A DNA stretch of 64,000 bases from positions 2,655 to 66,654 of the forward strand of contig CASEQD010000005.1 of NCBI GenBank assembly GCA_949289935.1, read 5' to 3'. The notes beneath the pieces are model-generated. The model did no database searches and had not been told where the DNA came from. It was given only the letters and a program-made list of their open reading frames with translations. This DNA is from an uncultured Pseudomonadota bacterium (GTDB taxonomy: Bacteria; Pseudomonadota; Alphaproteobacteria; RF32; CAG-239). This document shows positions 10,043-62,701 of this stretch, piece by piece. The stretch's first letter is position 1. Each line of letters starts with the position of its first letter. Position numbers and translations under genes: made by a program.

Positions 10043-10137
10043 AATATTTCTCCGAACATAAGCTTTATGTTAATATTTCTTCCATAATAGGTGCAAAAAG
10101 TTTTTTTTAGGTTAATATTTCTCATAACGGAGACAAT

Positions 10138-10821: not shown

Positions 10822-10832
10822 GCTCCGCCCCC

Positions 10833-12257: not shown

Positions 12258-12355
12258 CTAAAATACACCCTGCCTTGCAAAAACATCTGGACTGAACAAT
12301 AAATTATATTATGATACAAGAAGTTTAAATAGCATTAAGAACAGACAGAAAATAA

Positions 12356-15058: not shown

Positions 15059-15086
15059 AAAAAGCGGAAATTATTTCCGCTTTTTT
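15058..15086. terminator. bidirectional terminator between mutS and the convergent 734-aa gene
   Basis: AGCGGAAA-tta-TTTCCGCT hairpin flanked by an A-run and a T-run. Confidence 0.65.
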
Positions 15087-15104
15087 CAGAAATGTAGTCA
15101 GGTT

Positions 15105-17309
15105 TCATTCTTTTTGAGAAAGCTTATCATACATTTTTTTGTCTCGCATCATGCGCAAAACTTTGTCTGCGCTTTTTTTGCTGATTTTTTGGCCTTTTTT
15201 GCCGTCATCTTCAACGGCGGGTTTTTCATAAACGCCCCGGTCGGACATTTCTTCCTTAACGGCGTCGTTCATTTTGTGCCGTAACTCTTCGGCTTTCTTC
15301 TTATAAGCTTTATGAACGGACTTTTTCTGTTCGGCAAAAACCGATTCGCCGGTAAATTCCTGACCTTTATAAGCAAAAGAAAGTCCTTCTCTTGCCTTGC
15401 CTTTCAGCTCTTTTGTCCGGTCGACAAAGTTTTTTGATACTTTTGCCAGTTTATCTGCCGGGCTGTTTCGTTCATAATCTGAAACAAAATTCCAAGTCCA
15501 TTCTGAGACGGAATTCTTAGCGTTGAACCATTCTTTGACGACAGCACTTTGTTTATCCAGGGCTGCTTCGCGTAAAGAACGGAGAGACTGAAAAGCCTCA
15601 TCGGAAAAGAGCATTGGTTTTACCTGAATAAAAATATTTTTATAAGCTTTCAGCTCGGGTAAAAGAGCGTTAATCTGTTCTACTTGATATTCAATTCTCT
15701 GCTGGCGTTCTTTTTCTTTTTTACCGCTGAACAGGGAAGACAAGCCGCTTTGTCTGGCATAGACGATTTTGTTTGGTCCTTTTCCGGCAATATTGTTGCG
15801 GACGATTTCTTCAATCGATTGATCGGAAAGCTGCGTTTCCTTATCCGTCCGGAGGCTTGCAATTTGTTTGTAAATCTCCTCCAAAGCATTCCGTCGGGAC
15901 AGAGCTTCTTCATGTTTGACGATGTTGATGTCAGCCTTGTTTTTTTGTTCTTGTTTTTGCGAAAACAATTCCAGATTTTTTTTATTCTGTTCATATCTTG
16001 CGGTTTGTTCGTCAACCAGAGGCGCAACGGTTTGAATGAATTTTTTCATTTCCGGAGAAATGCTTTTCATCTTCAAGGCCGCATCCAGCATAAAATTGAT
16101 TCCTTCTGACGTAAAAAAGGCTCTGCCGTTTTCTTTTGCGGCTTTTTCCTGTACGGCTGTAATGTATTGCGTCATCAGCTTCAGGCGTTTGTCTTCCGAA
16201 ATGCCGTAATCAAGCGCCCACAGCCGGGCAGCTTGCCCGTCAGGAGACAAATATTTATATTCGGACAATTCTTGAGGACGATATTTTGCCAGTAGCTGCA
16301 TCATATCACTGGAAAAATTGCTTTGCCGGAATTTTTGTGCATAATCAAGCTCTCTTTGTGCTCTGACTTCTCCTCTGGCGTTTTGATACGCTCTGAAATT
16401 AGCGGAATTATAAGGAAAATTGCTTTGTTCCGGAAGCTTGAGTTTATACAGACATGTATAAAAAAGTTTTTGAGTCTCATCACAGTACGGCACCTGTTCT
16501 GCCCAATTTTCCGGAAAATATTTTTTCACTCCGGTGGAATTATTAGAAAAATCAAAACTCTTGGAAATTTTTTCTGCCAGATTCGTAAGCTTTTTCATGC
16601 GTCCCGAAAGAGAAAAATCACCATAATCCGAAGAATGGATATCTTTCATAAGGCTTGCAAAAGTCGGCAGCATAACAGAGTTCTGTCCGTAAGCCTGAGT
16701 ATAAAAATCAAGAATGGCCGCTTTGAGCTCCCAAGGCAATTGGCGGCGTTGGTCGCGGCTGGCTTCCTTATCCCGAGCCAAAAGACGGGTGCAGATATCA
16801 CCCGCGTGGGCAAGAGTACGATCATCTTTGGAAATGTCAAAAGTTGTGTTTTTCAGAAGGCTTGCCGTGCTAAAATCTCCTCTTGCCAGAGAGGCGTCAA
16901 GCAAAGACAGTTTTGCGACATTGTCAAGTTCGTTAAACTTTTGGGAATCGTTCATGATGGTATTTTGAGCCGCCTGTAAAACATCTGTCATGCCAAAGCT
17001 CGAAATCAGACGGCTGTTTAAATCGGCGTTTCCTTGTACAAAGCTTGTCTGAAGAGTACGCTGCAGCACGAGATGATAAGCTTTTTGTTTGGCAGGTTCA
17101 TAATTTCGTGTGACAGGATCAAAACCGAAATCAATCATGTCTCTGATATTGTCCAACGTCAGTTTGTTTATATCTTTGGACATGGGAAGAAATGTCATAC
17201 CGTAAGGGCCTTCTTTACTTAATTCTTCAGCGGCCTGTGTAAAATAAGCATGAAAATTCTGCTCGTTTATTTCTGTAAATTTTTTTCCATCAAGAGAATA
17301 TTCTGTCAT
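15105..17309 (-). CDS. large hypothetical protein (734 aa, no TM segment, K/E-rich C-terminal part)
   Basis: Single uninterrupted 2.2-kb ORF; the overlapping ORFs are short shadows. No motif recognised. Confidence 0.65.
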   Translation of the reverse strand: MTEYSLDGKKFTEINEQNFHAYFTQAAEELSKEGPYGMTFLPMSKDINKLTLDNIRDMIDFGFDPVTRNYEPAKQKAYHLVLQRTLQTSFVQGNADLNSRLISSFGMTDVLQAAQNTIMNDSQKFNELDNVAKLSLLDASLARGDFSTASLLKNTTFDISKDDRTLAHAGDICTRLLARDKEASRDQRRQLPWELKAAILDFYTQAYGQNSVMLPTFASLMKDIHSSDYGDFSLSGRMKKLTNLAEKISKSFDFSNNSTGVKKYFPENWAEQVPYCDETQKLFYTCLYKLKLPEQSNFPYNSANFRAYQNARGEVRAQRELDYAQKFRQSNFSSDMMQLLAKYRPQELSEYKYLSPDGQAARLWALDYGISEDKRLKLMTQYITAVQEKAAKENGRAFFTSEGINFMLDAALKMKSISPEMKKFIQTVAPLVDEQTARYEQNKKNLELFSQKQEQKNKADINIVKHEEALSRRNALEEIYKQIASLRTDKETQLSDQSIEEIVRNNIAGKGPNKIVYARQSGLSSLFSGKKEKERQQRIEYQVEQINALLPELKAYKNIFIQVKPMLFSDEAFQSLRSLREAALDKQSAVVKEWFNAKNSVSEWTWNFVSDYERNSPADKLAKVSKNFVDRTKELKGKAREGLSFAYKGQEFTGESVFAEQKKSVHKAYKKKAEELRHKMNDAVKEEMSDRGVYEKPAVEDDGKKGQKISKKSADKVLRMMRDKKMYDKLSQKE

Positions 17310-17412
17310 TGATAACGTCCTCTGTTAATAATCATAAACTGATTATAACGCCGGACGATCTTAATTTCAATTATTTTTTTCGAAATTTTGTACAAATAGT
17401 AAAATCCCGGTG

Positions 17413-17441
17413 TTGACAAAAAATATCAGGAAAAACATAAT
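17413..17441 (+). promoter_or_regulatory. candidate sigma70-type promoter upstream of rplM-rpsI
   Basis: TTGACA (17413-17418), 17-nt spacer, CATAAT (17436-17441). Confidence 0.35.
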
Positions 17442-17503
17442 GTTGCATTGCGGTATTATCATACCGTACAATTAACGCTATGAAAATTATGCAAAAAATC
17501 ATA

Positions 17504-17531
17504 TTGACAATAAAAAACTTTCCTGTATATT
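17504..17531 (+). promoter_or_regulatory. candidate sigma70-type promoter upstream of rplM-rpsI (proximal)
   Basis: TTGACA (17504-17509), 16-nt spacer, TATATT (17526-17531), about 43 nt before the rplM ATG. Confidence 0.4.
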
Positions 17532-17573
17532 TCACTACGAATTTAACCTTTAACCAATTTAAAGTGAGTTACA

Positions 17574-18041
17574 ATGAATACATACGCAACAAAACCGTCA
17601 GACATTAAAAGAAAATGGTATGTCGTTGACGCTGAAGGTGTTGTGCTCGGACGTTTGGCGGCTCAGGTTGCCAAAATCCTCCGCGGCAAACACAAACCGT
17701 CGTTTGTTCCGAACCTGGACTGCGGCGACTATGTCGTTGTCATCAATGCCGACAAAGTAAAGCTGACCGGCAAAAAACTGACCCATAAAAAATATTTTAA
17801 ACACACCGGTTGGATCGGTGGAATCAAAGAAACAACCGCGGCGAAGATTTTAGCCGGACGTTTTCCTGAAAGGGTTGTCATCAAAGCTGTTGAACGTATG
17901 ATTTCCCGCAATCCCCTCGGCCGTCAGCAGATGACAAAGCTGCGGGTTTATGCCGGTTCTGAAAATCCGCATGCAGCGCAGAATCCCGAGGTTTTGGATA
18001 TTGCGTCTATGAACGAAAAGAATAAGAGGAGCGCATTATAA
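17574..18041 (+). CDS. rplM: 50S ribosomal protein L13
   Basis: [18 protein letters not shown]...[17 protein letters not shown] is a classical L13 sequence. Confidence 0.95.
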
Positions 18042-18514
18042 TGGCTGAAAAAATTGAATCATTGCAGGATATCAAAACTGCGGCAGCCGCAACGGAAGTT
18101 AAGGTTCGCAAACCCAATAGAGACAAACAGGGACGTTCTTATGCCACCGGAAAAAGAAAAGACGCCGTTGCCCGCGTTTGGATTAAGCCGGGAAAAGGTA
18201 ACATCACCATCAATGAAAAATCCATTGACGAATATTTTGCCCGTCCGGTTTTAAAAATGCTCATTAACCAACCTTTTGAAATTACGAACCGTGTTAACGA
18301 ATTTGATGTTGTCTGCACGGTAAAAGGCGGTGGATTGTCCGGCCAGGCAGGCGCTATCAAACACGGCATTTCCATTGCTCTGAACGAGTATGAGCCTGAA
18401 TTGAGAGCCGTTTTGAAAAAAGCCGGCTTCCTGACCCGTGATGACCGTGTCGTTGAACGTAAAAAATACGGCAAAGCCAAAGCACGTCGTTCTTACCAGT
18501 TCTCCAAACGTTAA
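18041..18514 (+). CDS. rpsI: 30S ribosomal protein S9
   Basis: [18 protein letters not shown] and the C-terminal [11 protein letters not shown]. The start overlaps the rplM stop (ATAATG). Confidence 0.95.
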
Positions 18515-28425: not shown

Positions 28426-29304
28426 TTAAAACTCAATCACCGGGCGAACGATGAATAAGTCCATCTTAAGGTAAGAGAGGCTGTATAATTCACCCGAAGA
28501 CGGGTCCCAACTCCACGCAACCTGAGCATTATGGTTCTCGGACGATGACCACCACACATTCTTACTGTATTTATTACTATAGATATTTTCTTTGTTACTT
28601 TTTGTTAAGCTTTGATCAATAGCCCTTTTGTTCTGGTAAATACTGTTTAACACGCCGCCGGAAGGTAAACACCATTTGCCTTTGGTTTCCGGTATGGTTG
28701 ACGGGGCGTAGTTGTATACTGCCCAGAATGCAGGGTAATATTCAGAGGCACTGTTTCCGTATTGCTTGGAACTGTAATCAATAACAATCTTCGTATTCTC
28801 ACAACTGGAAAAATCATTTATCGGAACACTGGGGTAATCCGGCAAATCAGGAATATTAACATCTTTCATTGACCAATAAAAAAATCCCAGACTTTCCAGC
28901 GCCAGAGCCTGGCCGCAGCCGTCCCAGCCGATGTAAACCACAACGCCGATTGGTGTTTTGCCGGAAACAACATCGGCGGAACAGGTACCGTCAGAATAAA
29001 GGATATCTGCGATTTTGCAGTTTTTGGCATAACCTGTGCACTGTCCGAGAACAGCGCCTTCCGGTTCTTCGGGTTGACAGGCGCCGTCTTTCCATTCATA
29101 ACCGTCTTCACAGTCTTTCGGACACCAGTAATATTCTCCGAACGGACATTTTAACCCCGGCGTTTTGCAGGAAGTCTTATTATAACCCAAACTCACACAA
29201 TCTTCATTGTCCACGCACTGAGCAAAAGCGGAAATCGGGAACATAAAAGAAGAAGCCAGCAGGGTAAAATATACCTTTTTGCCGGCGGAAAGAATCACAC
29301 GCAT
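28426..29304 (-). CDS. secreted Cys-rich protein with DUF1566-like (Lcl C-terminal-like) domain
   Basis: I chose start MRVILSAGKKVYFTLLASSFMFPISAFA (signal peptide); the ORF is open from 29373. Has a Cys-rich N-terminal part. The C-terminal WCLPSGGVL....VWWSSSE....VRPVIEF resembles the DUF1566 pattern. Confidence 0.6.
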   Translation of the reverse strand: MRVILSAGKKVYFTLLASSFMFPISAFAQCVDNEDCVSLGYNKTSCKTPGLKCPFGEYYWCPKDCEDGYEWKDGACQPEEPEGAVLGQCTGYAKNCKIADILYSDGTCSADVVSGKTPIGVVVYIGWDGCGQALALESLGFFYWSMKDVNIPDLPDYPSVPINDFSSCENTKIVIDYSSKQYGNSASEYYPAFWAVYNYAPSTIPETKGKWCLPSGGVLNSIYQNKRAIDQSLTKSNKENIYSNKYSKNVWWSSSENHNAQVAWSWDPSSGELYSLSYLKMDLFIVRPVIEF

Positions 29305-29373
29305 TTCATCCTCCACACTTCTAATTTCATGCGGAAGTGAAAAAAATGAAGATGATTTTTTTGTCAGACTCAT

Positions 29374-35941: not shown

Positions 35942-36016
35942 GCCGCTATAGCTCAGTGGTAGAGCACGTCATTGGTAATGACGGGGTCGTAAGTCCGATT
36001 CTTACTAGCGGCACCA
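35942..36016 (+). tRNA. tRNA-Thr (anticodon GGU), non-canonical T-loop
   Basis: GCCGCTA/TAGCGGC acceptor, D-arm GCTC-AGTGGTA-GAGC, anticodon arm CGTCA-TTGGTAA-TGACG, T-arm GTAAG-TCCGATT-CTTAC and an encoded CCA. The T-loop has C where the near-universal U55 is expected. Confidence 0.75.
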
Positions 36017-36126
36017 TTTTTGATAATGCACCGTTAAAGGTGCTTTTTTTGTATCTATTCCAAGCCTTTCAGCCAGTCCGATTTTGAGAATTTTTAAAAG
36101 AACAAATTTTAGCAACTTATCGGACT
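35995..36126 (+). repeat. cassette-boundary module, copy 0 (includes the tRNA-Thr 3' end)
   Basis: AGTCCGAT...GGCACCA (tRNA T-arm to CCA), a terminator hairpin, then AGTCCGAT (36075-36082), 36 nt, and ATCGGACT (36119-36126). Confidence 0.8.
36028..36050 (+). terminator. rho-independent terminator after tRNA-Thr (part of module 0)
   Basis: GCACC-gttaaa-GGTGC followed by TTTTTTT. Confidence 0.7.
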
Positions 36127-36167
36127 TTTTTATAAAAAATTAATATCTCTGCATTTTAACAAAACTA

Positions 36168-36196
36168 TTTTCTTTTAACGAGAAGCATGATAAAAT
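36168..36196 (+). promoter_or_regulatory. candidate extended -10 promoter of cassette 1
   Basis: TG-A-TAAAAT (36188-36196), about 28 nt upstream of the ATG. The -35 is weak (TTTTCT). Confidence 0.3.
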
Positions 36197-36223
36197 AAGA
36201 TGAGATTATTGAAAGGGACATAA

Positions 36224-37021
36224 ATGGCAGATACTCTTGATATTAGCAATATGTTTGCATATGACATGTTTGAGGGAGATACAAAAGTTGGAACTTGTAA
36301 TATTTCAATCCATCCTCAATATAGTGGTTTTCAGTGTCCAGATACTTGGAAAGATAAATCTGTGTTAGAAATTGATGGCTTTGGAACCTTCCAAAGAAAT
36401 GGTTACGGACGCGCCGGATTACAAAAATGCTATGAGTTATCACAACAAATGGGATGTGAAGGACGTATAGTCGTTCATGCTACATGGGATGCGGGCTCTT
36501 TTTATGAACATTGTGGCTTTAACAGTAATAATCAAGGAAAACCAGGAATAAAATATTTTGAACCGACCTTTGAAAATTTGGAAAAATTATTTAAAGGTGG
36601 AAAAAAAGATAATTTCTTATTTAGAGAAAGTACACCTGATTTTAATGCTTTTGCGAACTTTAATTTTGATGATTTTGAGCTGCAAAAATCAAATCAAAAG
36701 AGATGCGATGATAATAAAAAGCCCGAACTAGACTTTAATCCTGAAGCAGGTTTAATTGAATATGCTGATAAGAACTTACAAAAAATTGCAGAGCTAAGAA
36801 AGAGAATAAAAAACAATAATATTGATCCGTTAGAACTTAAAGCCAAATCACTAGCTTCGAGCCTTGAAGAAATTGGCTTATCTAGAGATGATTTAGGCAA
36901 AACAGGGAATAGCAGGACAGGCGAAATAACTGAAAAGAATAGGAAAATTGCAAAAAGCCAAACGGAAGATGCTAAAGAGGCAATGTTACGAAATAAAAAA
37001 TTAAAGGAAGATTGTCGGTAA
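36224..37021 (+). CDS. GNAT-like N-acetyltransferase domain protein with charged C-terminal extension (cassette 1)
   Basis: FQRNGYGRAGLQKCYELS matches the R/Q-x-x-G-x-G/A acetyl-CoA loop, and FYEHCGF is present. The C-terminal ~130 aa are K/E/N-rich low complexity. The region is very AT-rich. Confidence 0.55.
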   Translation: MADTLDISNMFAYDMFEGDTKVGTCNISIHPQYSGFQCPDTWKDKSVLEIDGFGTFQRNGYGRAGLQKCYELSQQMGCEGRIVVHATWDAGSFYEHCGFNSNNQGKPGIKYFEPTFENLEKLFKGGKKDNFLFRESTPDFNAFANFNFDDFELQKSNQKRCDDNKKPELDFNPEAGLIEYADKNLQKIAELRKRIKNNNIDPLELKAKSLASSLEEIGLSRDDLGKTGNSRTGEITEKNRKIAKSQTEDAKEAMLRNKKLKEDCR

Positions 37022-37188
37022 TTTTTACCTAAAAAAATTACAACTTTTTATTTTTGAGAAAATTTAATGATTTTATACTAGAAGATGACATTTCTAAAGA
37101 ATAGCTTTTGACTTGATTTTTATACAAATTCTTTACTGTCAAACATATCAATTTTCTTACTCAAAAGCTTAAAATTATCATAAAATTT

Positions 37189-37326
37189 AGTCCGATAATT
37201 GCATAGTATCTCGCACCATTTTTAAGAATTCCGCCCAAGTGGCGGATTTTTTATTTTTAAACAAGAGATTATTTAGTCCGATTTTGTGAGTTTTGAAAAT
37301 GCCATTTTGGGCAAAGTTATCGGACT
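37189..37326 (+). repeat. cassette-boundary module, copy 1
   Basis: AGTCCGATAATTGCATAGTATCTCGCACCA (37189-37218). Hairpin CCGCC-caagt-GGCGG plus a T-run. AGTCCGAT (37275-37282), 36 nt, ATCGGACT (37319-37326). Confidence 0.8.
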
Positions 37327-37332
37327 TTTATC

Positions 37333-37361
37333 TTTACTTTACTTATTGCATCCTATATAAT
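37333..37361 (+). promoter_or_regulatory. candidate promoter of cassette 2
   Basis: TTTACT (37333-37338), 17-nt spacer, TATAAT (37356-37361), about 33 nt before the ATG at 37394. Confidence 0.4.
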
Positions 37362-37393
37362 CCTCACACAAATTGAAATAAGGATATGCATAA

Positions 37394-38158
37394 ATGGACT
37401 TATCAGTCAAAATAATGAGTAAAATTGACACATTATCAAGTATTTTGAATTTTCAAACGGATGATACATCTGTTTACTGGCGAGGAGCTTTATTCAAAGC
37501 TTATCCTTTTTTGGACGAAAAAAAATGTTTAAATATGGCTTGGAATGAAAGAAAAGAATATTTAACGGCAGAATTATCAAAAATCTATGATAAAATTGAA
37601 ATAGACTTACAAAAAAAATGTTTTATTTTCCAAAAAAGTTGGAAAGAAAACAAAGAAAAAATAAATCATATTTACACAAAAGTTTTTGGTATTGATTGCG
37701 ACAATCTTTTTAATACTATGATTGCAGAAGTTTCTCTTAATCCCATATGTCCCAGAAATCTCAGGCATCAAAGTTATTCTGTTACTTGGGCAGGAGATGA
37801 ACTTGACTTTCTAAAAACATCTCTTCATGAAATGGTTCATTTTGTTTGGTTTTATATATGGAAACAACATTTTAAAGATGATTGGTCTGAATATGAAGCA
37901 CCAAATTTAAAATGGATTTTAAGCGAAATGGTCATAGATACCTTTGTGAAAAATACAGATATCGGAAATATGTATCCTGAAAAGTATAAAAACAAACCAG
38001 CTTATAAATATTTTTATGATATGAAAATAAATAATCAAATTATTCTTGAAGAATTAACCTCTCTCTATATAAAGTCTAAAAATATAATACAATTTATGGT
38101 GGAAGCTTACTTATATTGTCAAATAAATGAAAAAGACATTAGACGGCAAATATTATAG
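37394..38158 (+). CDS. hypothetical HExxH protein (possible zincin-like) (cassette 2)
   Basis: 254 aa. SLHEMVHFVW has the HExxH motif, with a downstream Glu in LSEMVID 29 residues after the second His. No signal peptide. AT-rich. Confidence 0.5.
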   Translation: MDLSVKIMSKIDTLSSILNFQTDDTSVYWRGALFKAYPFLDEKKCLNMAWNERKEYLTAELSKIYDKIEIDLQKKCFIFQKSWKENKEKINHIYTKVFGIDCDNLFNTMIAEVSLNPICPRNLRHQSYSVTWAGDELDFLKTSLHEMVHFVWFYIWKQHFKDDWSEYEAPNLKWILSEMVIDTFVKNTDIGNMYPEKYKNKPAYKYFYDMKINNQIILEELTSLYIKSKNIIQFMVEAYLYCQINEKDIRRQIL

Positions 38159-38190
38159 TTAATTTTCCTATTTTAAGCCTCATACTCACT

Positions 38191-38330
38191 AGTCCGATAA
38201 CTGCACAGTATCGCGCACCATTTTTAAGAATGCACCCTTTGAGGTGCTTTTTTGTATGTGTTCCAAAGCCTTGCAAAGAGTCCGATTTTGGAAATTTTTA
38301 ATTTAGCATTTTTTACAAAGTTATCGGACT
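38191..38330 (+). repeat. cassette-boundary module, copy 2
   Basis: AGTCCGATAACTGCACAGTATCGCGCACCA (38191-38220). Hairpin GCACC-ctttga-GGTGC plus a T-run. AGTCCGAT (38279-38286), 36 nt, ATCGGACT (38323-38330). An extra AGTCCGATAA box lies at 38379-38388. Confidence 0.8.
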
Positions 38331-38557
38331 TTTTGATGAAAAGCCAATAAATTTAAGCATTTTATCTTCTAAAATTCTAGTCCGATAAAAATGATTGAAA
38401 ATTTAATTTATTCAGCATAACATTTTGACTATGGATATTTTAATTATAATCATAGCAGTAACTTTTTATGCCACTTGTAAAACGTGGCGAAATCTGTTTA
38501 ACCAAGAACAAAATCCGATTTATACTTGCAAAACTCTGCCGGGTGAGGAGATAAAAC

Positions 38558-39373
38558 ATGAACAAAAATTTAACATTTGCTGGTGCGGCGATTGTTATTC
38601 TTGGATTGTCGATGAGCATAGACTCTTTGTGTGCAAATACGCTTTCTGAAAAGAATGAGAATTTATCTATCGGCGAGGAAGTATTTTTTAATCCCTATAC
38701 TGGTTTACCATGTCATGAAACGGATGCTTGGAATCAAAGCAATCATACCAGCGAATGCTACCGCTGGCATGTTATCAAAGACAACGGCGACAGTTGTGAT
38801 TTGTTGCTCGATCACAACCTCGGTGCCAGAGTGCCGTGGTTAAGTTACGAAGATTTTATTTCGGCCGGCGGTACTCCTGACAAATACGGCGCCTCGGGCA
38901 ATAATCGCTACGGGCCGTTGACCGCGTTAAAAGAGCTGCAAAAGACTACCGGGTCGTTTAAAAATGTTGAAATCTTGACTGCTGATGACAATGTATCGCG
39001 TTCCGTCGGCGGCGCAGGCTATACCGTTGATTACACCGGTTATAAAGCACGGTTGATAAGCGCGGCAGAGCTGGCTGCTCTGTCTGCTAGCAAACCAATG
39101 AAAGATGGCAATGCTTGGCAAGCCTCAAGCGGCAGTTATATTCACGCTTTGCCTCAATGGCTTTATACAAATCTCGGCCGTCCGGATATAGCGCAGCCCG
39201 AGATTCATGTCGCCTACTATACCGATACTGCGCACGCCGTCAAATCGGATACTGTCTGGGTAGTTTGTCTGGGCAGCAATCTTGGCAAAGCTTCCGTAAC
39301 CACAATGAGCCGTTATGGACAGGAACTTTTGGGTATTCGTCCGGTCATCAAAGTAAAGAAAAACAAGCTATGA
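38558..39373 (+). CDS. secreted protein, DUF1566-like C-terminus (cassette 3)
   Basis: Signal peptide MNKNLTFAGAAIVILGLSMSIDSLCA, with a GAGGAG RBS 7 nt upstream. The ARLISAAELAAL and C-terminal GIRPVIKV motifs parallel WCLPSGGVL and VRPVIEF in 28426..29304. Confidence 0.55.
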   Translation: MNKNLTFAGAAIVILGLSMSIDSLCANTLSEKNENLSIGEEVFFNPYTGLPCHETDAWNQSNHTSECYRWHVIKDNGDSCDLLLDHNLGARVPWLSYEDFISAGGTPDKYGASGNNRYGPLTALKELQKTTGSFKNVEILTADDNVSRSVGGAGYTVDYTGYKARLISAAELAALSASKPMKDGNAWQASSGSYIHALPQWLYTNLGRPDIAQPEIHVAYYTDTAHAVKSDTVWVVCLGSNLGKASVTTMSRYGQELLGIRPVIKVKKNKL

Positions 39374-39445
39374 TAAGCGAAGATTGTTTGCAACATATGA
39401 TATTGAATAATATTTGTATTTACTCCTGTTGTACTAACAAAATAA

Positions 39446-39730
39446 CCATCCAAAGTCCTGGCCTTTGCTTTCAGTCTGGCGGCGGAAATAGAAAGAAACT
39501 TAATCTCCCAAAGGACTAAATCATCTCTTGCTAATCTTAAAGCGTCTGGCAAGAAACTCGGACGCCCGTTTTCCGCAGAGTCAAAAAAGCTCAAACTCTC
39601 AAAAAATGCTAAAAAGGTACGGAATTTATTATCTAAAGGCATCTCCAAGTCCCAAATTGCTAAAATCCTCGGCGTCCAGCGCAGCACATTGAGGCGGTTT
39701 ATTGAAAGAATATCTGAAACAAAGGCTTAA
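39446..39730 (+). pseudogene. serine recombinase (resolvase/invertase) remnant; C-terminal half only
   Basis: Hand translation gives PSKVLAFAFSLAAEIERNLISQRTKSSLANLKASGKKLGRPFS...SKSQIAKILGVQRSTLRRFIERI. This matches the resolvase E-helix (AE.ER.LI..RT) plus the GRP linker and HTH. An in-frame stop at 39443 leaves no catalytic Ser domain. Confidence 0.7.
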
Positions 39731-39754
39731 CATCTCTTCAAACTTACTAAGAAA

Positions 39755-41008
39755 TTATATATCCAAGCAATTAGGATTTAGCAAAAATTCTTTTAACCCT
39801 AAAATTAAAATACCGTCATCATCTTGATAGGTCGCCACATCATCCTTTACAATAATTATTTTTTTAAATGAATCACCTATTTTTAATAAAGAGCGTTTTT
39901 CTTGAGTTTCTTTTGCTTTTGTTGGCATTTGTAAGGCTGATTGAATATAATATTTTTTATAACCGCAGTTTACTACAAAATCAACTTCTGTTTTTTTGTT
40001 AATGTATGTATTATTGGCTTGTTTTTCTTTAATAAGAACCTCTCCAACGTCAACATCACAGCCACGAATTTTCAATTCATTATAGATTATATTTTCCATG
40101 ATATGGCTTTCTTCTGTTTGCCTAAATCGTAAACGCGAATTTCGTAATCCTAAATCAGTAAAATAGTATTTAGATGGAGTGTTTATATATTTTTTACCTT
40201 TAATGTCATAACGCAACGCATTACTAATTAAAAAAGAATCTTGCAAATAATCAATATAGTTTTTAATTGTAGGCGCTGAAATATCTAGTTTTTTTACGCT
40301 CTTAAAAGTATTGGTTAATATTAACGGATTTACTAAGCAACCAATATCTGAAGCTAAAATATTTATTAATTCTTCTAGTTCTTCATCATTGCGGATATTA
40401 TGCCGGTCTTTGATATCTTGAATATATGTTTCAGTAAATAAAGACTGTAAATACTTCCGTTTTTCTTCATCTGTTTGACGAGATAAAATCATAGGCATAC
40501 CACCATAAGTATAATATTCTTTCCATGCATCAATCCAAGATCCTTCATAAACAGAAAAGAATTCTGCAAAACTGAGAGGATAAACCCTGATTTCATCTCC
40601 TCTACCTCTAAATTCCGTTACAATGTCGGTAGATAAAAATTTAGAATTGCTTCCGGTTACATATACATCTAAATTTTCAATGTGTAAAAAGCCATTTAAA
40701 ACATCTGAAAAATTATCCATTAGCTGAACTTCATCTAATAACAAATAATGCATTTCAGAATCAATGATATGTGATTTGACATAGTTATAACATTCATCTG
40801 GTTGACGATATTTCATATTTGGATAGTCATCTAAAGCCAAAGTAATGATTCTTTTTTCAGAAACCCCTTCATCCAGCAAATGTTGCTTGAAAAGTTGAAA
40901 CAATAAATAGGATTTACCACAGCGTCTTATTCCACTAACTATTTTAACTAATCCGTTGTGTTTTTTGTTGATTAGTTGAGTAAGGTAATTTGTTCTTTCA
41001 ATTTTCAC
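39755..41008 (-). CDS. AAA+ ATPase, DUF4143-type ATP-binding protein
   Basis: 417 aa. N-terminal R.NYL..LI......VKIVSGIRRCGKSYLL (Walker A) and a LLLDEVQ Walker B-like motif. The layout is typical of the AAA_14/DUF4143 family. Confidence 0.75.
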   Translation of the reverse strand: MKIERTNYLTQLINKKHNGLVKIVSGIRRCGKSYLLFQLFKQHLLDEGVSEKRIITLALDDYPNMKYRQPDECYNYVKSHIIDSEMHYLLLDEVQLMDNFSDVLNGFLHIENLDVYVTGSNSKFLSTDIVTEFRGRGDEIRVYPLSFAEFFSVYEGSWIDAWKEYYTYGGMPMILSRQTDEEKRKYLQSLFTETYIQDIKDRHNIRNDEELEELINILASDIGCLVNPLILTNTFKSVKKLDISAPTIKNYIDYLQDSFLISNALRYDIKGKKYINTPSKYYFTDLGLRNSRLRFRQTEESHIMENIIYNELKIRGCDVDVGEVLIKEKQANNTYINKKTEVDFVVNCGYKKYYIQSALQMPTKAKETQEKRSLLKIGDSFKKIIIVKDDVATYQDDDGILILGLKEFLLNPNCLDI

Positions 41009-41235
41009 AACACCCTCCTATTTTAAATAATTGTACACATGTCAAGTTTTATAAAATATACTGTTAAAAGTTTTTGTTGTCAATGTTTATTTTAAAAATT
41101 CATACAACTGTTCAGTTTTATAAAATAAGATGCAGCTGTCTGAAAATATTATGCCAGTAGTAAATTTGATTTGGTAATGCCACAATCAAACAACTCAATT
41201 TTCCTACCCAAGTCTTTAAATTCCTCATATTCGTT

Positions 41236-41397
41236 AGTCCGATAATCGCATAGTATCGCGCACCATTTGTTAATTTCTGGCGTTTTTAGCAGCTTATCGA
41301 ACGGTCTAGCTATTGAAAAAGCTATATTTTTTCCATCAGTTTTGCAGTCCGATAATATTAGTTTTAAAATGTCTCTTTTTTGTGAAATAATCGAACT
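41236..41397 (+). repeat. cassette-boundary module, copy 3 (degenerate, terminal)
   Basis: AGTCCGATAATCGCATAGTATCGCGCACCA (41236-41265). Hairpin TAGCT-attgaaaa-AGCTA plus T-rich sequence. AGTCCGAT (41346-41353), 36 nt, ATCGAACT (41390-41397, one G>A change). Confidence 0.7.
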
Positions 41398-41528
41398 TTT
41401 TAAGAATTTTTCAACATTTGCAGATGCCTTCTTAATTTGGAGGTTTTTAAAACGGATGATATTGCAAAAAAAACAATGAGGCGTAAAAAAGGGATTGTAA
41501 AATTGTCTTACAATCCCTTTTCTTTTTA

Positions 41529-42395
41529 CTATTCAAGTGGATCAAAGTCACTGCTAATTAATGAACCGGACTTTGAACGCCTCTCATAATCCGTGGATAT
41601 ATTAATACCGCGAAGATACAAGAGCAAAAGCAACAAGCCAAAAATTCCTGTATAAATCCAGGCGGCGTTGTCAACTTTTTTATTTATGATTTCAGCAAAT
41701 ACTTCTGGCTCTGAAGCATTGCGAAAACCGGAATCCGAATCAATAAAATAATATCTATCGCCGAAACCATAAATGTAATAACTCTTTCCGGCTTTAACAG
41801 CGATTCCCGAACCACTGATTTTTCCTTGAGGATAATTCTGTCCGGAAATGGTAACGAGTTGTGCGGTAGCTTTATCTACTGTCTTATAACCATCGTATTC
41901 AACCGAAGGGGCAAAAAGACTCACAACCGACGTACCAAACAAAGCAAGAGCCATACATCGTACCGTACATACAATAGTCCACCACCAAATCTCTTCATCG
42001 TCATCTTTTCCAAATAACCAGACTAAGATAAGAGATAGAACGAAGCCTGCTACAGGAGACAAAACAATAACTTTCCAGTAAATTCCGCCCGCTCCTTGAT
42101 AGGAAAAAGATAACTTTCTGATTAAAGAGAGAGCCTGAAAACAATCACTTTTTGAAAGAAAAACTTCGTCACTGTTAGAATAAACGCCGACAGAATCTCC
42201 AACGTGTAACTCTTCGCCGGAAAGCCAATCTTCAACGCCGCCATCAATCAGATAGCTGTTTCCATTAATGACAACGCTTTTCGAATTTTCAATTCTTTCA
42301 ATTCTTCCGCTGTTTTCCAAATGAAAATTGCCTTTTATTCCATGGCAGGAACTCAAAGTGAGGACGGCAAACAATAAAAATAGTAAATTTTTCAT
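41529..42395 (-). CDS. hypothetical lipoprotein / multi-pass membrane protein
   Basis: 288 aa. Lipobox LTLSSC, three internal TM segments and repeated soluble segments. Confidence 0.5.
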   Translation of the reverse strand: MKNLLFLLFAVLTLSSCHGIKGNFHLENSGRIERIENSKSVVINGNSYLIDGGVEDWLSGEELHVGDSVGVYSNSDEVFLSKSDCFQALSLIRKLSFSYQGAGGIYWKVIVLSPVAGFVLSLILVWLFGKDDDEEIWWWTIVCTVRCMALALFGTSVVSLFAPSVEYDGYKTVDKATAQLVTISGQNYPQGKISGSGIAVKAGKSYYIYGFGDRYYFIDSDSGFRNASEPEVFAEIINKKVDNAAWIYTGIFGLLLLLLYLRGINISTDYERRSKSGSLISSDFDPLE

Positions 42396-42603
42396 AATAA
42401 ATAAAGTTTAGATTAATAATACAATTTGCTGAACATAATACAAAAAAACGCAATTTTGTCAAGAAAAAATGAAAAAAAGTTCCAAAACACAAATATTTTA
42501 TTGGTTGATGCTTGAACATCATCCATAAAAAAACAATTTCTTCAGCAAAATTTTAGACAATAAAAAATCCCCGCAACAATTATGTTGTCGGGGAAACGTT
42601 TTT

Positions 42604-42891
42604 TTACGAAATAAGCATTTTTGCCACAATTGATAAAACCAGAATGCTTAAAATAACTGTCAGCCAGGTGAATTTTTCTCTCTTTTGCGGCTTTGTTTTG
42701 GGCAATATAAACAGCATAAAAAATGCCATGCCGAAACAATAAATAAAAAAGAGCAGCGATAAATCTTCTGCCATTGCAATCATCGGTGTTTGCAGTTTTT
42801 TGATATCCAATAAATGCAAAACGATCAGAAACAACAACAAACCGGTACAGACCGGAAACTTTCTGAATAAATCAATGATAAATTTCTTCAT
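42604..42891 (-). CDS. small hypothetical membrane protein
   Basis: 95 aa with three hydrophobic segments. Confidence 0.4.
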   Translation of the reverse strand: MKKFIIDLFRKFPVCTGLLLFLIVLHLLDIKKLQTPMIAMAEDLSLLFFIYCFGMAFFMLFILPKTKPQKREKFTWLTVILSILVLSIVAKMLIS

Positions 42892-43110
42892 AAAAACAAG
42901 TTGTTAAATGTAAGAATAATAACGGATAAAAACACAATAATTAACTTATAAATTACATATATACATAATATCAAAAATGTAAACAATTATTTTCAGAGAT
43001 GCTTCTCTTGGATTTACGGGAACACAGCGAAGGTTGATTGGCTGAGTGGATAAAAAGCAACCGCTTCCCGTAACGCCGTATTTTGTAGTTTTGAAAATGA
43101 CGTTATAAAA

Positions 43111-44091
43111 TTAAAAATCTTTTACCGCCTGTTTGTTTGCAAATTTTTGTGCAACCAGATTGGATTTACATTGTTTTTGCATCTTATCAGCAAATTTCAA
43201 TAAACTTTCCATCCGGGCAATATCTTCCGCTTCCATAAAATTAGTATACAAACCGCCGTCTTTATAAATGTGGATGACTTTTTGTTGAAAAGCATAAACT
43301 TTATCTATTTCTTCAGATGTTGCAGCTTTCCTTAAATTATACTCCACAGCCCCTTTTAACAGTTCATCAGATTTTTGTGTGTCTTCTTCGGATCCAAGAA
43401 TTCTAAAGCTTTGCAGATAATCCGAAAATTTAACTTTGGATGTTTTTAATGTTTTATCAAAATCTTCGGCAAACTTTTTGCTTTTCCCGAAATATACATC
43501 TTGTATAAAAGCATTGTTTTCTACTTTTTCTCCCATGAGCAAATCTGCTACAATAACTTGTGAAGCATATCCTGCATTTGCTCCCGGGCCGACACGGCCG
43601 TTGGCTCTGCTTGCCAAAGCATCTGTTATGGCTTCATTTAAATCGGCGCTTGTTGTCGTAACAATATTTCCTCGTCCGTCAAATTCTGTATATCTTGATC
43701 CGATTTTTATATAGCCTCCGCCATTTTCGGTTTTGCCGCTGTTGGAAGAGAAAGCGTGCAAAACTTCGTGTGTTATAATATGGTTGCTTGCTTGAGAACA
43801 TATTGCAATACCTTGAGTCGTTTTGTATGATCTGCTGTCAGAGCTTGCAAAAAACTTATATGCAGCAGCGCCTGCCGGAACTTTAACATCACAAAGTTTA
43901 CCATTTTCAAGTCTTTTGCAACTTCGATTATTATCACATAAAACAACCGTCAGATCTTTGTATATTTCATCAACTTTATCTTTCCAGTCGTCAGGAGAAA
44001 TTTTTCGTGCAAAATCTTTCGCAGATTTTAATATTCCGGCGATTTTAGGATCCTCTTGCGTTTCAGAATAATCTGATTTTCTGAAAATCAT
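43111..44091 (-). CDS. hypothetical zincin-like metalloprotease (HExxH + NEAxTD)
   Basis: 326 aa. IITHEVLHAF (HExxH) is followed 41 residues later by LNEAITD, which resembles the gluzincin NEAxSD third-ligand motif. No signal peptide. Confidence 0.5.
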   Translation of the reverse strand: MIFRKSDYSETQEDPKIAGILKSAKDFARKISPDDWKDKVDEIYKDLTVVLCDNNRSCKRLENGKLCDVKVPAGAAAYKFFASSDSRSYKTTQGIAICSQASNHIITHEVLHAFSSNSGKTENGGGYIKIGSRYTEFDGRGNIVTTTSADLNEAITDALASRANGRVGPGANAGYASQVIVADLLMGEKVENNAFIQDVYFGKSKKFAEDFDKTLKTSKVKFSDYLQSFRILGSEEDTQKSDELLKGAVEYNLRKAATSEEIDKVYAFQQKVIHIYKDGGLYTNFMEAEDIARMESLLKFADKMQKQCKSNLVAQKFANKQAVKDF

Positions 44092-44668: not shown

Positions 44669-45205
44669 ATGGAAAACAAAAGTTTTTTAAAGTTGCTTCT
44701 GCAAGCGAAGCAAAAAAGAGATGTTATGCCGCAAATGCTGTTGGATGCTTTTTGCCGTGAGTGTTGGATCAGCCGCCGCAATTGGAATTTGTCAGAAGAT
44801 AGAAAATTGTGGGAAGACTGTTTTACGGAATTCGGCGATGTGCTCAAATCTTTGCCTGCCGATGAAAAAATGCGAATAATTCCGCAGCTCGTTTCTAAAA
44901 GCAAAATCTGGCCGTCTTTTATGTTTTTAGCCAGAGAGCTTTTTGACCAGCTGTCTCCGGAAGAGCAAAAGAGCCTTGAAATTCCGGTGGTCAGGTGGAC
45001 GCGGAATGACAAAGAAAGAATCATTTCCCAAGAGGAATTCCTTTGGTTGAAAGCCAATGGATTTCGTTGCTGGGAAAATAAAGAACATCCGGGAATATAT
45101 CTGCGGCCGGCCCGGTTTGAAGATTTTGAATGCTTTTACAAACTCTTGAGCATGATACAAGATTCGGAAACCGAGGCCTATATGTATTTTCCCGGAGATG
45201 AATAG
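44669..45205 (+). CDS. hypothetical protein
   Basis: 178-aa ORF. The last ~40 aa (IYLRPARFEDFECFYKLL) resemble the start of a RimJ/RimL-type GNAT domain that is then cut off. Confidence 0.45.
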   Translation: MENKSFLKLLLQAKQKRDVMPQMLLDAFCRECWISRRNWNLSEDRKLWEDCFTEFGDVLKSLPADEKMRIIPQLVSKSKIWPSFMFLARELFDQLSPEEQKSLEIPVVRWTRNDKERIISQEEFLWLKANGFRCWENKEHPGIYLRPARFEDFECFYKLLSMIQDSETEAYMYFPGDE

Positions 45206-61627: not shown

Positions 61628-62701
61628 ATGATGATCAAAAAGATGGATATATGGCTGGAAAAATGTGCGGTTTGGCTGGCGCCTTTATTTGAATTTCTGT
61701 CCCCGCTTGGCCGGAAAGGTCAGGCTCTTTCTGATAAATTCATATCCTGGCTGGAGCTGCGTTTTCCCCGCGTCTTTGAACCGGCGCAATCGGAACGGCT
61801 TAAAATTATTGCCGGAAAAAAGACGGCCCTTTATCATGGAGCCGTTGCGGCTGCTGCAATTGCGGAAGTTTTGTTGCTGGCGTTTGTTTCCCCGGTGCTC
61901 TTCTGGATTTTTGCAATCATCGGGTTGCCGCTGGCCTGGTTGGTCTGGAGAGAATATCGCATGGCGGCATTCTGGCTGTCTGCTTTTCAAATCATCTGTA
62001 TGGCCGGAAGCCTTGTTGTCCGTCCGGAATATTTTCTTCTTGAAATTTTGTTCGGACTTCTGTTTTTTCTGGTTTGTTTTATATGCTTCAGATATGATAA
62101 CGCCAAGGCAAAACTTTTGGGAAAAAGTGTTTCTGACGAAAAAAATAAAAAATATAAAGATGCCTCTGCCGTTTTAATTTCGGCATGTATGTTGTTTGTT
62201 GCCTTTCTGCTGACGGAGCTTGTTTCTCCCGGCGCAAAAATGCCGGTTCCGGAAGTTCCCGTTGGCAATCATGTTTTTAACCGCCGGGCGGGAGTAATTT
62301 CGCGCAGCCTCTTCGGCTATACCGAATTTTGCCGCAAACAAAATTATGAATTGAAAATATATCCGCAGGCTTTTGCCAAACGGTATGCCGGAGAAATTGC
62401 CGAAGTGGAAAAAGAATTGTCCCGGGATGGTTTAACTCTTTCGGATTATTATAACAATGCAAAACGCATTTATGGCAGAAGGCTGGATGAAAGCATTGCT
62501 TCCGAAATGGATATTCTGCGGCGGCAGGCAATCGTCGAACTGGTTGCGCTCAATCGCAACATTCGTCCGTCCCAGGTCCGCTGGCTTCCGGAAATGGACG
62601 GATATATCAGCATGACCGAAGCCTGCGTCCTGTTTGATGAAATTGCCGAAAATACCTTAAATGCCGTTAAGAAAGATATGATGACGCCTGACGGAAAATA
62701 A
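61628..62701 (+). CDS. hypothetical membrane protein
   Basis: 357 aa. The N-terminal half has about 5 TM segments and the C-terminal half is soluble. Confidence 0.55.
   Translation: MMIKKMDIWLEKCAVWLAPLFEFLSPLGRKGQALSDKFISWLELRFPRVFEPAQSERLKIIAGKKTALYHGAVAAAAIAEVLLLAFVSPVLFWIFAIIGLPLAWLVWREYRMAAFWLSAFQIICMAGSLVVRPEYFLLEILFGLLFFLVCFICFRYDNAKAKLLGKSVSDEKNKKYKDASAVLISACMLFVAFLLTELVSPGAKMPVPEVPVGNHVFNRRAGVISRSLFGYTEFCRKQNYELKIYPQAFAKRYAGEIAEVEKELSRDGLTLSDYYNNAKRIYGRRLDESIASEMDILRRQAIVELVALNRNIRPSQVRWLPEMDGYISMTEACVLFDEIAENTLNAVKKDMMTPDGK

Follow-up and report, generated by a model that had tools for sequence, protein, structure and literature searches.

The window analysed here comprises 64,000 nucleotides (64 kb) of an uncultured member of the Alphaproteobacteria (GTDB lineage RF32; CAG-239), i.e., positions 2,655 to 66,654 of contig CASEQD010000005.1 in assembly GCA_949289935.1. 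Its subject is an array of gene cassettes that starts at the 3' end of a tRNA gene. This chromosomal anchor, a tRNA-Thr(GGT) gene, lies at 35942-36016 on the plus strand (found by ARAGORN; Rfam tRNA, 70.8 bits), and the gene order murA - tRNA-Thr is kept in many relatives. The tRNA gene is followed by a composite module in four direct copies, detected as a repeat family, which bound three low-GC inserts. The last module overlaps the 3' remnant of a gene for a large serine recombinase (LSR). We consider it likely, with a probability of about three in four, that the window contains three non-autonomous cassettes in tandem between the 3' end of tRNA-Thr and a decayed LSR element, and that this array was built by the LSR.

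Each module contains a box that begins with AGTCCGAT and ends in GCACCA, a hairpin followed by a T-run (in modules 0-2), and a palindrome of the form AGTCCGAT-N36-ATCGGACT. An initial annotation of the window had reported these four modules after tRNA-Thr, and they were recovered both as repeat families and with an nhmmer profile built from 47 modules, all from other genomes. This profile matched the 64 kb at 37136-37331, 38173-38336, 35992-36132 and 41185-41403 (E-values of 8e-46 to 8e-27), and no fifth module was detected anywhere in the window. Since a profile of foreign modules matches only these four places, the module is real, specific and confined to the locus. As to its limits, modules 1 and 3 start ~50 nt further upstream than annotated, at 37139 and 41186, respectively, and the upstream arm of module 2 is shortened, its profile alignment starting at 38173. 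The modules are 70-92% identical to each other (70-90% over 120-200 bp). The motif AGTCCGAT is present 14 times on the two strands of the window, where 0.98 copies are expected; none of 100 shuffled sequences reached this ~14-fold excess. Twelve copies lie within 35992-41353, i.e., the nine on the plus strand that had been counted before and three on the minus strand, which are right arms of palindromes. Only one copy had been noticed outside the array, but there are two, at 28003 and 30701, both within housekeeping genes.

The box of modules 1-3, referred to as box A, reads AGTCCGAT-N16-GCACCA. It is 5 nt longer than the tRNA gene's 3' end, with which it has only AGTCCGAT and GCACCA in common, and it is not a copy of it. 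The counterpart in the tRNA gene consists of AGTCCGAT in the T-loop, 11 nt and GCACCA (35992-36016, plus strand), and we designate it the attB-type site, as opposed to the attP-type half-site represented by box A. The putative crossover, an 8-bp core with the sequence GCACCATT, is located at the tRNA gene's 3' end (36011-36018, plus strand), as deduced from homology breakpoints (see below). The terminators, which form the first part of the proximal (P') arms of cassettes 1, 2 and 3, are found on the plus strand at 36028-36050 (hairpin at 36028-36043), 37230-37252 (hairpin at 37230-37246) and 38232-38253 (hairpin at 38232-38247), respectively. All three consist of a G+C-rich hairpin and a T-run, and their stems vary among the modules by compensatory changes, in agreement with the initial assignment. 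The palindromes of 52 bp are located at 36075-36126 (palindrome 0, in the P' arm of cassette 1), 37275-37326 (palindrome 1), 38279-38330 (palindrome 2) and 41346-41397 (palindrome 3). Their spacer is exactly 36 nt in all four copies, and palindromes 0 and 1 start 1200 nt apart, both as described earlier. An exact right arm, also claimed for all copies, is not present in palindrome 3, where it reads ATCGAACT, with one mismatch. In window and four related loci, Rfam and ARAGORN, the latter of which also seeks tmRNA, reported only tRNA genes.

The tRNA-Thr(GGT) gene of the window has an unusual T-loop, TCCGATT, with C at position 55 (35992-35999), and so have all tRNA-Thr(GGT) genes of loci L003-L118 (related loci are denoted by L and a number). 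At this position of the tRNA T-loop, U, which is modified to pseudouridine 55, is nearly universal. Most other tRNAs of these loci (Leu, Gly, Thr-CGT and Ala) have the usual GTTCGA, and the tRNA-Asp of L116 also has TCCGA. The odd T-loop coincides with the motif AGTCCGAT that the recombinase presumably recognizes.

Cassette 1 (36017-37218) carries a single gene on the plus strand (36224-37021) for a 265-aa protein. It had been labeled GNAT-like, for which Pfam offers a weak match (Acetyltransf_1, E-value 2.5e-5). The distal arm with box A occupies 37120-37218 on the minus strand (box A, the attP-type half-site, at 37189-37218), and on that strand it encodes a tail peptide, WCEILCNYRTKFYDNFKLLSKKIDMFDSKEFV, followed by a stop codon. 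Cassette 2 (37219-38220) contains a gene on the plus strand (37394-38158) for a 254-aa protein with an HEMVH motif. Its box A lies at 38191-38220 on the plus strand, and its tail-coding arm is decayed, with a stop after 15 codons. Cassette 3 (38221-41265) contains, on the plus strand, a gene for a 271-aa protein with a signal-peptide-like N terminus (38558-39373) and a C-terminal remnant of a small serine recombinase of the resolvase/invertase type, including a helix-turn-helix, recognized in translation (39446-39730). On the minus strand follows a gene for an ATPase with AAA_14 and DUF4143 domains (39755-41008; E-values of 3e-31 and 3e-17). Its distal arm with box A is located at 41149-41265 on the minus strand (box A at 41236-41265), and there the C-terminal tail of the LSR remnant is in frame and ends with KWCAILCDYRTNEYEEFKDLGRKIELFDCGITKSNLLLA and a stop codon. 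The 254- and 271-aa proteins belong to no Pfam family, so the labels HExxH and DUF1566-like that had been given to them find no support in that database. Of the promoters postulated for the first two inserts, that of insert 2 could be located as a promoter-like site at 37333-37361; none was found for insert 1.

The inserts were described as very AT-rich. Indeed, their GC content is 26-36%, versus ~45-49% in the flanks, with the exception of the gene at 38558-39373, which has ~50% and is embedded in cassette DNA of 28-30% GC, so that insert 3 is not uniform. L105 and L184 have cassettes that are homologous except that they lack this gene. The possibility that it is a captured host paralogue was discarded, as it shows no similarity to the chromosomal gene for a 315-aa secreted protein (28426-29373). 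The fragment of the small serine recombinase is kept as a 120-aa open reading frame (ORF) in cassettes of L005 and L105 and is, therefore, older than the spread of its cassette. The resolvase remnant of the initial annotation is thus present; however, it is cargo, common to L005 and L105 inside a cassette, and was rejected as the recombinase of the array. The recombinase of relevance is the one whose 3' remnant lies in module 3.

Comparable arrays exist throughout the lineage. When one genome per species was scanned with the palindrome pattern, for which ~5 chance matches were estimated, at least 118 stretches were found, almost all of them in metagenome-assembled genomes of uncultured gut and rumen Alphaproteobacteria. 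In ~70 loci, the distance from tRNA-Thr(GGT) to the palindrome downstream is 60-330 nt, and in a few loci the palindrome follows tRNA-Leu(TAA or CAA), tRNA-Thr(CGT) or tRNA-Gly(CCC). As these other targets have GCACCA or GCTCCA at their ends and T-loops that differ from AGTCCGAT by one to three mismatches (L073, L076, L094, L095, L110, L033, L063, L114), they look like secondary attB sites. In feature maps, the arrays follow the pattern B11-PAL-(A16-PAL)n, with all copies in one orientation and anchored at the tRNA 3' end. They are regular in more than 100 related genomes and contain up to five units per 8-kb tile (L105, L050). A set of 86 complete cassettes measures 559-4692 bp, with a median of ~1 kb and a GC fraction of 0.25-0.37, and these cassettes hold one or two ORFs, which are found on both strands across the set. 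The 134 ORFs fall into 100 clusters, 78 of which are singletons, and in a sample of the cargo, Pfam matches to Fic, NUDIX, GNAT, HD, GDSL, Ham1, His_Phos_1, Peptidase_S51, Ank and Dcm were obtained. Even the shortest cassettes, of 559 bp, have complete arms on either side. The distance from GCACCA to the palindrome falls into two classes: 55-60 nt, with a terminator in between (n = 97), and 79-81 nt, within LSR coding sequence (n = 69).

Past its last box A, an array is bordered by another kind of terminator, native in appearance, and by DNA with a higher GC content. Consequently, the arm with terminator and palindrome belongs to the cassette on its right and not to the chromosome. A conserved G+C-rich element of ~190-210 nt is found after tRNA-Thr or after the last box A in L016, L018, L058, L069, L050 and others. 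It includes a terminator that looks native and the sequence GAAGCGGACTTACG…GTCCGGAGCGG.TAGTTG…, and a repeat of the final 17-19 nt of the tRNA gene often forms its end. This element, which is not present in the window, belongs to no Rfam family and was not recognized as tmRNA by ARAGORN. A phage origin of the arrays was considered and rejected: the palindrome pattern has no match in IMG/VR, and the box A pattern gave two chance matches there, within unrelated coding sequence.

The same cassettes occupy different positions in different genomes. The cassette for the 265-aa protein is the first in the window and the third in L105, with 89-91% identity (89-90% over ~1 kb). The homology begins exactly with the first nucleotide of GCACCA (36011); left of it, the window has the tRNA gene and L105 a box A, and palindrome 0 travels with the downstream gene in L105. 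The cassette for the 254-aa protein is second in both the window and L105 (90% identity) and first in L069 and L106 (82-84%). The cassette with the ATPase gene, third in the window, takes the fourth place in L105 and the first in L184, a locus that was obtained by a look-up of cassette proteins (the other contigs returned by it were short and uninformative); an exact-protein look-up of murA gave no match. In L105, the block at 39727-41273 is 98% identical, and the homology reaches 8 nt beyond the GCACCA of 41260-41265; in L184, the ATPase gene is 98.8% identical and comes right after the tRNA, a terminator and a palindrome. Similarly, L089, L090 and L044 have flanks that are 91-98% identical and differ by whole cassettes, and a 192-aa cassette common to this group is adjacent to the tRNA in one genome and to a box A in another, with homology from GCACCA onwards. 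Cassette identity is 82-98% between genomes with only 66-78% identity in their murA DNA. That the cassettes are far more alike across species than murA implies horizontal movement. The comparison of tRNA-Thr loci thus revealed variation that is bounded by modules. The initial proposal of a cassette array that uses a site and a recombinase other than attC and IntI is borne out in that arrays are present in more than 100 genomes, cassettes shift position and relatives differ by entire cassettes. The objections it had foreseen do not apply, since the block is not invariant among relatives, the module, with four copies at one locus in the 64 kb and tRNA-anchored copies in relatives, is not a genome-wide repetitive extragenic palindromic (REP) sequence or miniature inverted-repeat transposable element (MITE), and the cargo is not duplicated.

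When all pairs of loci are considered, left homology ends cluster at offset 0 of GCACCA (n = 19, mostly tRNA versus box A), and right homology ends lie between +5 and +15, most often at +7. The breakpoints are confined to the shared GCACCATT, and we infer that the crossover lies in this 8-bp core, at offsets 0 to +7; judged by the geometry discussed below, CA would be the exchange dinucleotide. Four kinds of junction, i.e., tRNA to terminator-palindrome, tRNA to the LSR 3' end, box A to terminator-palindrome, and box A to the LSR 3' end, all join at GCACCA. A crossover at AGTCCGAT was dismissed, because in module 3 and in the terminal junctions box A is kept and the sequence does not change before GCACCA.

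Many genomes have the sequence of window module 3 immediately after the true tRNA, where it constitutes the 3' end of a convergent gene of 515-546 aa. This gene encodes a protein, of 514-551 aa overall, with Resolvase, Recombinase and Zn_ribbon_recom domains; in the proteins of L022 and L030, the matches to PF00239, PF07508 and PF13408 all exceed the curated cut-offs. On the basis of these domains, the gene encodes an LSR. Homologues were found in 35 genome loci and in 62 loci of human-gut metagenomes. The LSR gene constitutes the tRNA-proximal end of units of 8.1-10.6 kb with ~31% GC, which end in an arm and box A. Such units are followed by cassettes in L140, L141, L144, L154 and L022+L065, and in L132 a cassette precedes an intact LSR gene. 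LSR elements carry differing restriction-modification systems (L140, L144, L123); the unit of L140 (complement of 9985-18500), for example, contains genes for a DpnII endonuclease and two methylases. They also share conserved ORFs of ~269, 88 and 61 aa without a Pfam family, which might function in replication or directionality. In the window, the LSR gene is represented by a 3'-terminal remnant on the minus strand (41260-41445), which corresponds to residues ~452-513 (tblastn, 76% identity to the LSR of L022) and contains palindrome 3, encoding KSSIISQKRDILKLILSD. The frame at 41146-41445 on the minus strand is free of stop codons and encodes the last ~98 residues of an LSR-type protein. Nearly identical DNA abuts tRNA-Thr in L055 and L060. 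In at least 12 loci (L123, L124, L126, L134, L135, L137, L140, L144, L150, L152, L154, L164), a copy of AGTCCGAT is found ~22 nt upstream of the LSR start codon, a position that suggests autoregulation by the same DNA-binding activity.

The spacing between AGTCCGAT and GCACCA is strictly conserved over all loci: it is 11 nt in 73 tRNA sites, 16 nt in 80 other sites and 17 nt in six, and no other spacings were encountered. In serine integrases, the zinc-ribbon domain reads an outer motif of 8-9 bp, which lies 5 bp nearer to the crossover in attB than in attP and makes attB ~10 bp shorter than attP (Rutherford et al., 2013, PMC3783163). The difference between the 11- and 16-nt spacings matches this 5-bp rule, for the left half-site. 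If CA of GCACCA is the central dinucleotide, the half-sites would measure 21 bp (B-type) and 26 bp (P-type), with implied site sizes of ~42 and ~52 bp, respectively. By the same comparison, AGTCCGAT would be read by the zinc-ribbon domain of the LSR.

The arm to the left of box A is not mere spacer DNA. Beside a tRNA gene, the LSR ORF ends with KWCR or KWCRWQESDLRPRHYQ and a stop codon (KWCRR in L022). Next to a cassette, it continues through box A and the arm and ends, for example, with KWCAILCTYRTEYYEEFKQLEYNLEKCWKLRTIFVTYKKLI and a stop codon in L132, whose LSR measures 551 aa with the tail; intact LSR ORFs run through box A in both L126 and L132. No more than the last 27-38 codons are swapped. 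The tail frame is open over at least 23 codons in 115 of 124 distinct arms, and its median length is 30 codons, versus 18 and 9 in the other two frames. The entropy of the arms is 1.17, 0.97 and 1.47 at codon positions 1, 2 and 3, respectively, and the consensus tail peptide is WCAILCNYRTNNYDDFKQLSRKIELFE. From the open frame and the codon-position entropy, it follows that each cassette carries a conserved LSR tail of ~30 aa. Thus, as the distal arm encodes the C-terminal tail of the LSR, the attP-type site lies inside the recombinase gene. Of the window's modules, 1 and 3 have an intact tail-coding sequence, and that of module 2 has decayed.

The arms of the palindrome are invariant in 142 distinct copies. 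Its interior is not self-complementary and contains conserved T/A tracts at intervals of ~10-11 bp. In LSR genes, the palindrome is coding (KSPIISxKRDILxLILSD), whereas in cassettes the same DNA pattern is non-coding. With P-type half-sites of 26 bp, the 52 bp of the palindrome would equal two such half-sites, and its most likely role is that of an accessory site bound by the LSR. As a promoter, the palindrome was rejected: no consistent -35/-10 pair is present, and promoter-like sites number 33, versus 25.4 +/- 5.6 in shuffled sequences. A solitary AGTCCGAT is located at 38379-38386 on the plus strand, exactly 100 nt after the start of palindrome 2, and a copy at the same distance is found in ~17 cassettes of other genomes, which form one cassette subfamily. 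The simplest reading of the palindrome, the +100 copies and the copies upstream of the LSR gene is that one protein domain may bind them all.

Taken together, these data suggest the following mechanism. The LSR would recombine the chromosomal attB-type site, i.e., AGTCCGAT of the T-loop, 11 nt and GCACCA, with the attP-type site that is present on each cassette and on the LSR element, i.e., the distal arm, AGTCCGAT, 16 nt and GCACCA, with strand exchange within the common core GCACCATT. Because the sequence to the right of the core is identical in both types of site, the tRNA would carry a B-type site again after integration, with a P-type site left at the distal end. With attB presumably regenerated in this way, new cassettes and LSR elements would stack beside the tRNA, the newest being the nearest, as at the attI site of integrons. 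Cassettes without a recombinase gene would be moved in trans. Since attP would lie within the LSR reading frame, the distal arm of each cassette would supply an alternative C-terminal tail of ~30 aa. An incoming cassette would thereby donate a new tail to an LSR gene that spans attP, and this could switch the protein between an integrated and a cassette-adjacent state. The palindrome, at 55-60 nt to the right of the core, could serve as an accessory site for the same protein.

Several observations weigh against this model. The LSR is named as the catalyst on account of adjacency and geometry, and its sequence gave no detectable match to any solved serine integrase, only spurious matches to RecA. 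There is no intact LSR gene in the 64-kb window, nor any LSR sequence beyond the 3' remnant; hence, either the array no longer moves or it needs an LSR encoded at another place in the genome. Also in the other genome loci where an LSR gene is distal to a cassette, the gene is truncated without exception, and intact copies after box A were found only in the metagenome contigs L126 and L132. Furthermore, no inverted AGTCCGAT is recognizable within ~26 bp to the right of the core, which makes the sites highly asymmetric by the standards of serine integrases. The canonical members of this class do not carry out recombination between attP and attL. This rule would bar the use of the attL-like site in which the tRNA is joined to P', and so repeated insertion requires that the type of the site is set by its left half alone. 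The function assigned to the palindrome is likewise putative. Finally, all related loci were retrieved via the palindrome or the LSR, so the sample is one without truly empty tRNA-Thr sites, and the identity of 70-90% between modules over 120-200 bp means that homologous recombination could generate part of the variation in presence and order of the cassettes.

Homologous recombination could even account for most of the shuffling, if the modules are site-specific in origin and the LSR no longer acts on cassettes, the exchange taking place between modules of 120-200 bp. Besides the similarity of the modules, this explanation draws on homology blocks that stop ~17 nt past the palindrome instead of at the core (L089 versus L090), and on the many arrays beside which the LSR is missing or truncated. 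However, where a tRNA in one genome is opposed to a box A in another, the breakpoints are sharp at 0 to +7 of GCACCATT, with just 8 bp shared, and the import of a cassette that is far more alike than housekeeping DNA would require two flanking matches. Moreover, the strict arms, spacing and tail frame over 124 variants imply continued selection for function of the site. We regard this explanation as unlikely. A rather improbable alternative is that the locus is an ordinary composite island, in which complete LSR elements integrated successively at tRNA-Thr and then suffered deletions, so that the modules are att scars and the cassettes never moved by themselves. Module 3 is indeed a truncated LSR gene, LSR remnants of various lengths occur at many loci, in tandem in L123, L147 and L148, cassette 3 contains the debris of a resolvase, and serial integration at tRNA genes with leftover fragments is known from tycheposons. 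Yet the proximal arms show no continuum of decay, falling into the two discrete classes given above (n = 97 and n = 69), and cassettes of 559 bp retain both complete arms. The recurrence of the same cassette with its arms at other positions and in other species, with breakpoints at the core, and the 100 ORF families are also difficult to reconcile with an origin from a single kind of element of 8-10 kb.

Other explanations assign a different nature to the module itself. The palindrome, and not GCACCATT, might be the recombination site, symmetric like attP and cut at its centre, in the manner of attC sites or the Vibrio cholerae repeats (VCRs), to whose logic the initial annotation had likened the array. 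There is one palindrome per cassette, its arms are invariant, and with a fixed spacer of 36 nt its 52 bp has the size of a serine-integrase attP. Nevertheless, the central dinucleotides of the four copies in the window differ (GA, TG, TA and GT), which is incompatible with exchange by a serine recombinase, and the breakpoints lie 55-60 nt further to the left, at GCACCA, where all four combinations of junctions join. Folding of the attC or VCR type was discarded as well: in single strands, pairing is limited to the 8-bp arms and four further base pairs at most, and the folding energy is -0.7 to -8.5 kcal/mol. In its folding, the palindrome is thus unlike a VCR, and this possibility appears very improbable. 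Even less credible is that the module is a repeat of the REP type, a bacterial interspersed mosaic element (BIME) or a MITE, which spread by transposition and is clustered here by chance. Such repeats are, like the module, short, AT-rich, palindrome-bearing and intergenic, and the module does have many copies over the lineage. These copies are, however, co-oriented in arrays anchored at tRNA 3' ends in the relatives and joined to the tRNA at one fixed nucleotide position, there is no copy elsewhere in the 64 kb, and neither target-site duplications nor a transposase were found. A true integron, or a cluster of attC sites lacking an integron-integrase (CALIN), would explain the very diverse, mostly single-gene cassettes between repeated elements, but has next to no chance of being correct. 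Cassettes have genes on either strand, attC-like folding is not seen in the palindrome, and the associated recombinase is a serine recombinase. As had been remarked before, no IntI-type integrase is visible; according to Pfam, none of seven ORFs of the island and ten flanking ORFs encodes a tyrosine recombinase (Phage_integrase), the rest of the window having been read by eye.

Beyond module 3, where the module profile revealed no terminal module past 41403 in the window, the low-GC island continues for ~3 kb. It contains genes on the minus strand for a 288-aa membrane lipoprotein-like protein, a 95-aa protein and a 326-aa protein (together 41529-44091), which are probably the rest of the decayed distal element. 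The 326-aa protein (43111-44091) has an HEVLH motif and is the second HExxH-type protein of the window. The region at 41486-42470 is 92% identical to L035, whose LSR gene has the same truncation point. No Pfam matches were obtained for the ORFs at 41529-44091 or for that at 44669-45205. Large chromosomal ORFs without a Pfam family are located at 4306-5226, 15105-17309 (734 aa), 28426-29373 and 61628-62701.

How does an array built by an LSR compare with known systems? Gene-capture arrays are known mainly from integrons, which use a tyrosine recombinase and folded attC sites and which are reported to be nearly absent from Alphaproteobacteria. The arrays described here resemble integrons in their short cassettes of one or two genes, in the diverse and compositionally foreign gene pool, in the single fixed chromosomal entry site with one recombination site per cassette, and in the reordering of the same cassettes across hosts. 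They differ from integrons in using an LSR and not the tyrosine recombinase IntI, in double-stranded attB/attP-like sites with an 8-bp core and not folded single-stranded attC, in an entry site at the 3' end of a tRNA gene, and in a recombinase gene that spans attP and is one of the array's own mobile units. Since the cassette genes lie on either strand and have their own terminators, expression from a common Pc promoter, as in integrons, does not apply. In short, IntI, attC folding and co-orientation of cassettes are all lacking, and the system is one of integron-like logic with unrelated machinery.

Among elements moved by LSRs, the staphylococcal cassette chromosome (SCC) and its counterpart in Enterococcus integrate at the 3' end of rlmH by means of CcrAB or CcrC, and recombinase-less pseudo-SCC elements are presumably moved in trans. 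SCCmec and other SCC islands are similar to the present arrays in the LSR-mediated integration at the 3' end of a conserved gene, in tandem stacking and in the existence of units without recombinase. However, the units here are 0.6-4.7 kb instead of ~3-60 kb, the target is tRNA-Thr and not rlmH (orfX), and each unit has a tail-coding arm, a box A, a terminator and a 52-bp palindrome. Another parallel is offered by cis-mobilizable elements (CIMEs), related to ICESt1 and ICESt3 of Streptococcus thermophilus, and by integrative mobilizable elements, which are att-bounded and non-autonomous, accrete in tandem and borrow the recombinase of a related element. Such accretion is seen here in the combination of LSR elements and LSR-less cassettes in L132, L140, L141, L144, L154 and L022+L065. 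CIMEs, though, are few and large and depend on tyrosine integrases, whereas here dozens of families of minimal cassettes form arrays of up to five or more units with an LSR. Tycheposons of Prochlorococcus form islands at tRNA genes, where successive integrations push older elements inward, and a minority of them use LSRs (bioRxiv 10.1101/2020.12.28.424599). In both systems, remnants and cargo accumulate at the tRNA. Tycheposons carry an integrase and replication genes, whereas most units described here lack a recombinase; the arrays differ from tycheposons also because their junction boxes, being 5 nt longer, are not partial copies of the tRNA.

The LSR shares the Resolvase, Recombinase and Zn_ribbon_recom domains with phage serine integrases, such as those of A118 (LI), Bxb1 and phiC31, and an outer motif of 8 bp that is 5 bp nearer to the centre in the bacterial site. 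In contrast to the phage systems, the motif is present in the left half-site only, there is an extra palindrome of 52 bp at 55-60 bp distance, and repeated integration at one site would be unexpected under the rule that only attP and attB recombine. We know of no accessory sites for LSRs. Integration that alters the 3' end of a gene extending across the attachment site is known from archaeal integrases of the SSV type and from integration-dependent immunity in mycobacteriophages; here, the gene would be that for the LSR, and every cassette would have a spare copy of the tail. In our literature searches, no description of an LSR-based cassette array was found. The features for which we know of no precedent are minimal cassettes that depend on an LSR, an attP in the LSR ORF with a tail on each cassette, an additional palindromic site and a tRNA T-loop as recognition motif.

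A further-reaching proposal, which we put forward tentatively and with slightly less than even confidence, is that gut and rumen Alphaproteobacteria possess an active, independently evolved analogue of integrons, in which an LSR stacks cassettes of ~1 kb, incoming tails may switch the LSR and a bent palindrome acts as accessory site. Two mechanistic puzzles arise from the arrays, i.e., an LSR whose C terminus would be set by its integrated neighbor and a candidate accessory site for an LSR. Short sites of ~42 and ~52 bp, apparent regeneration of the site and many natural donors might make the system a tool for serial, multiplex insertion. If our interpretation is correct, a cassette platform based on a serine recombinase represents convergent evolution of the cassette-array strategy. 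It would then explain how accessory genes, among which Fic, NUDIX and GNAT proteins, methylases, restriction-modification systems and secreted proteins were sampled, are exchanged in these abundant uncultured gut bacteria.

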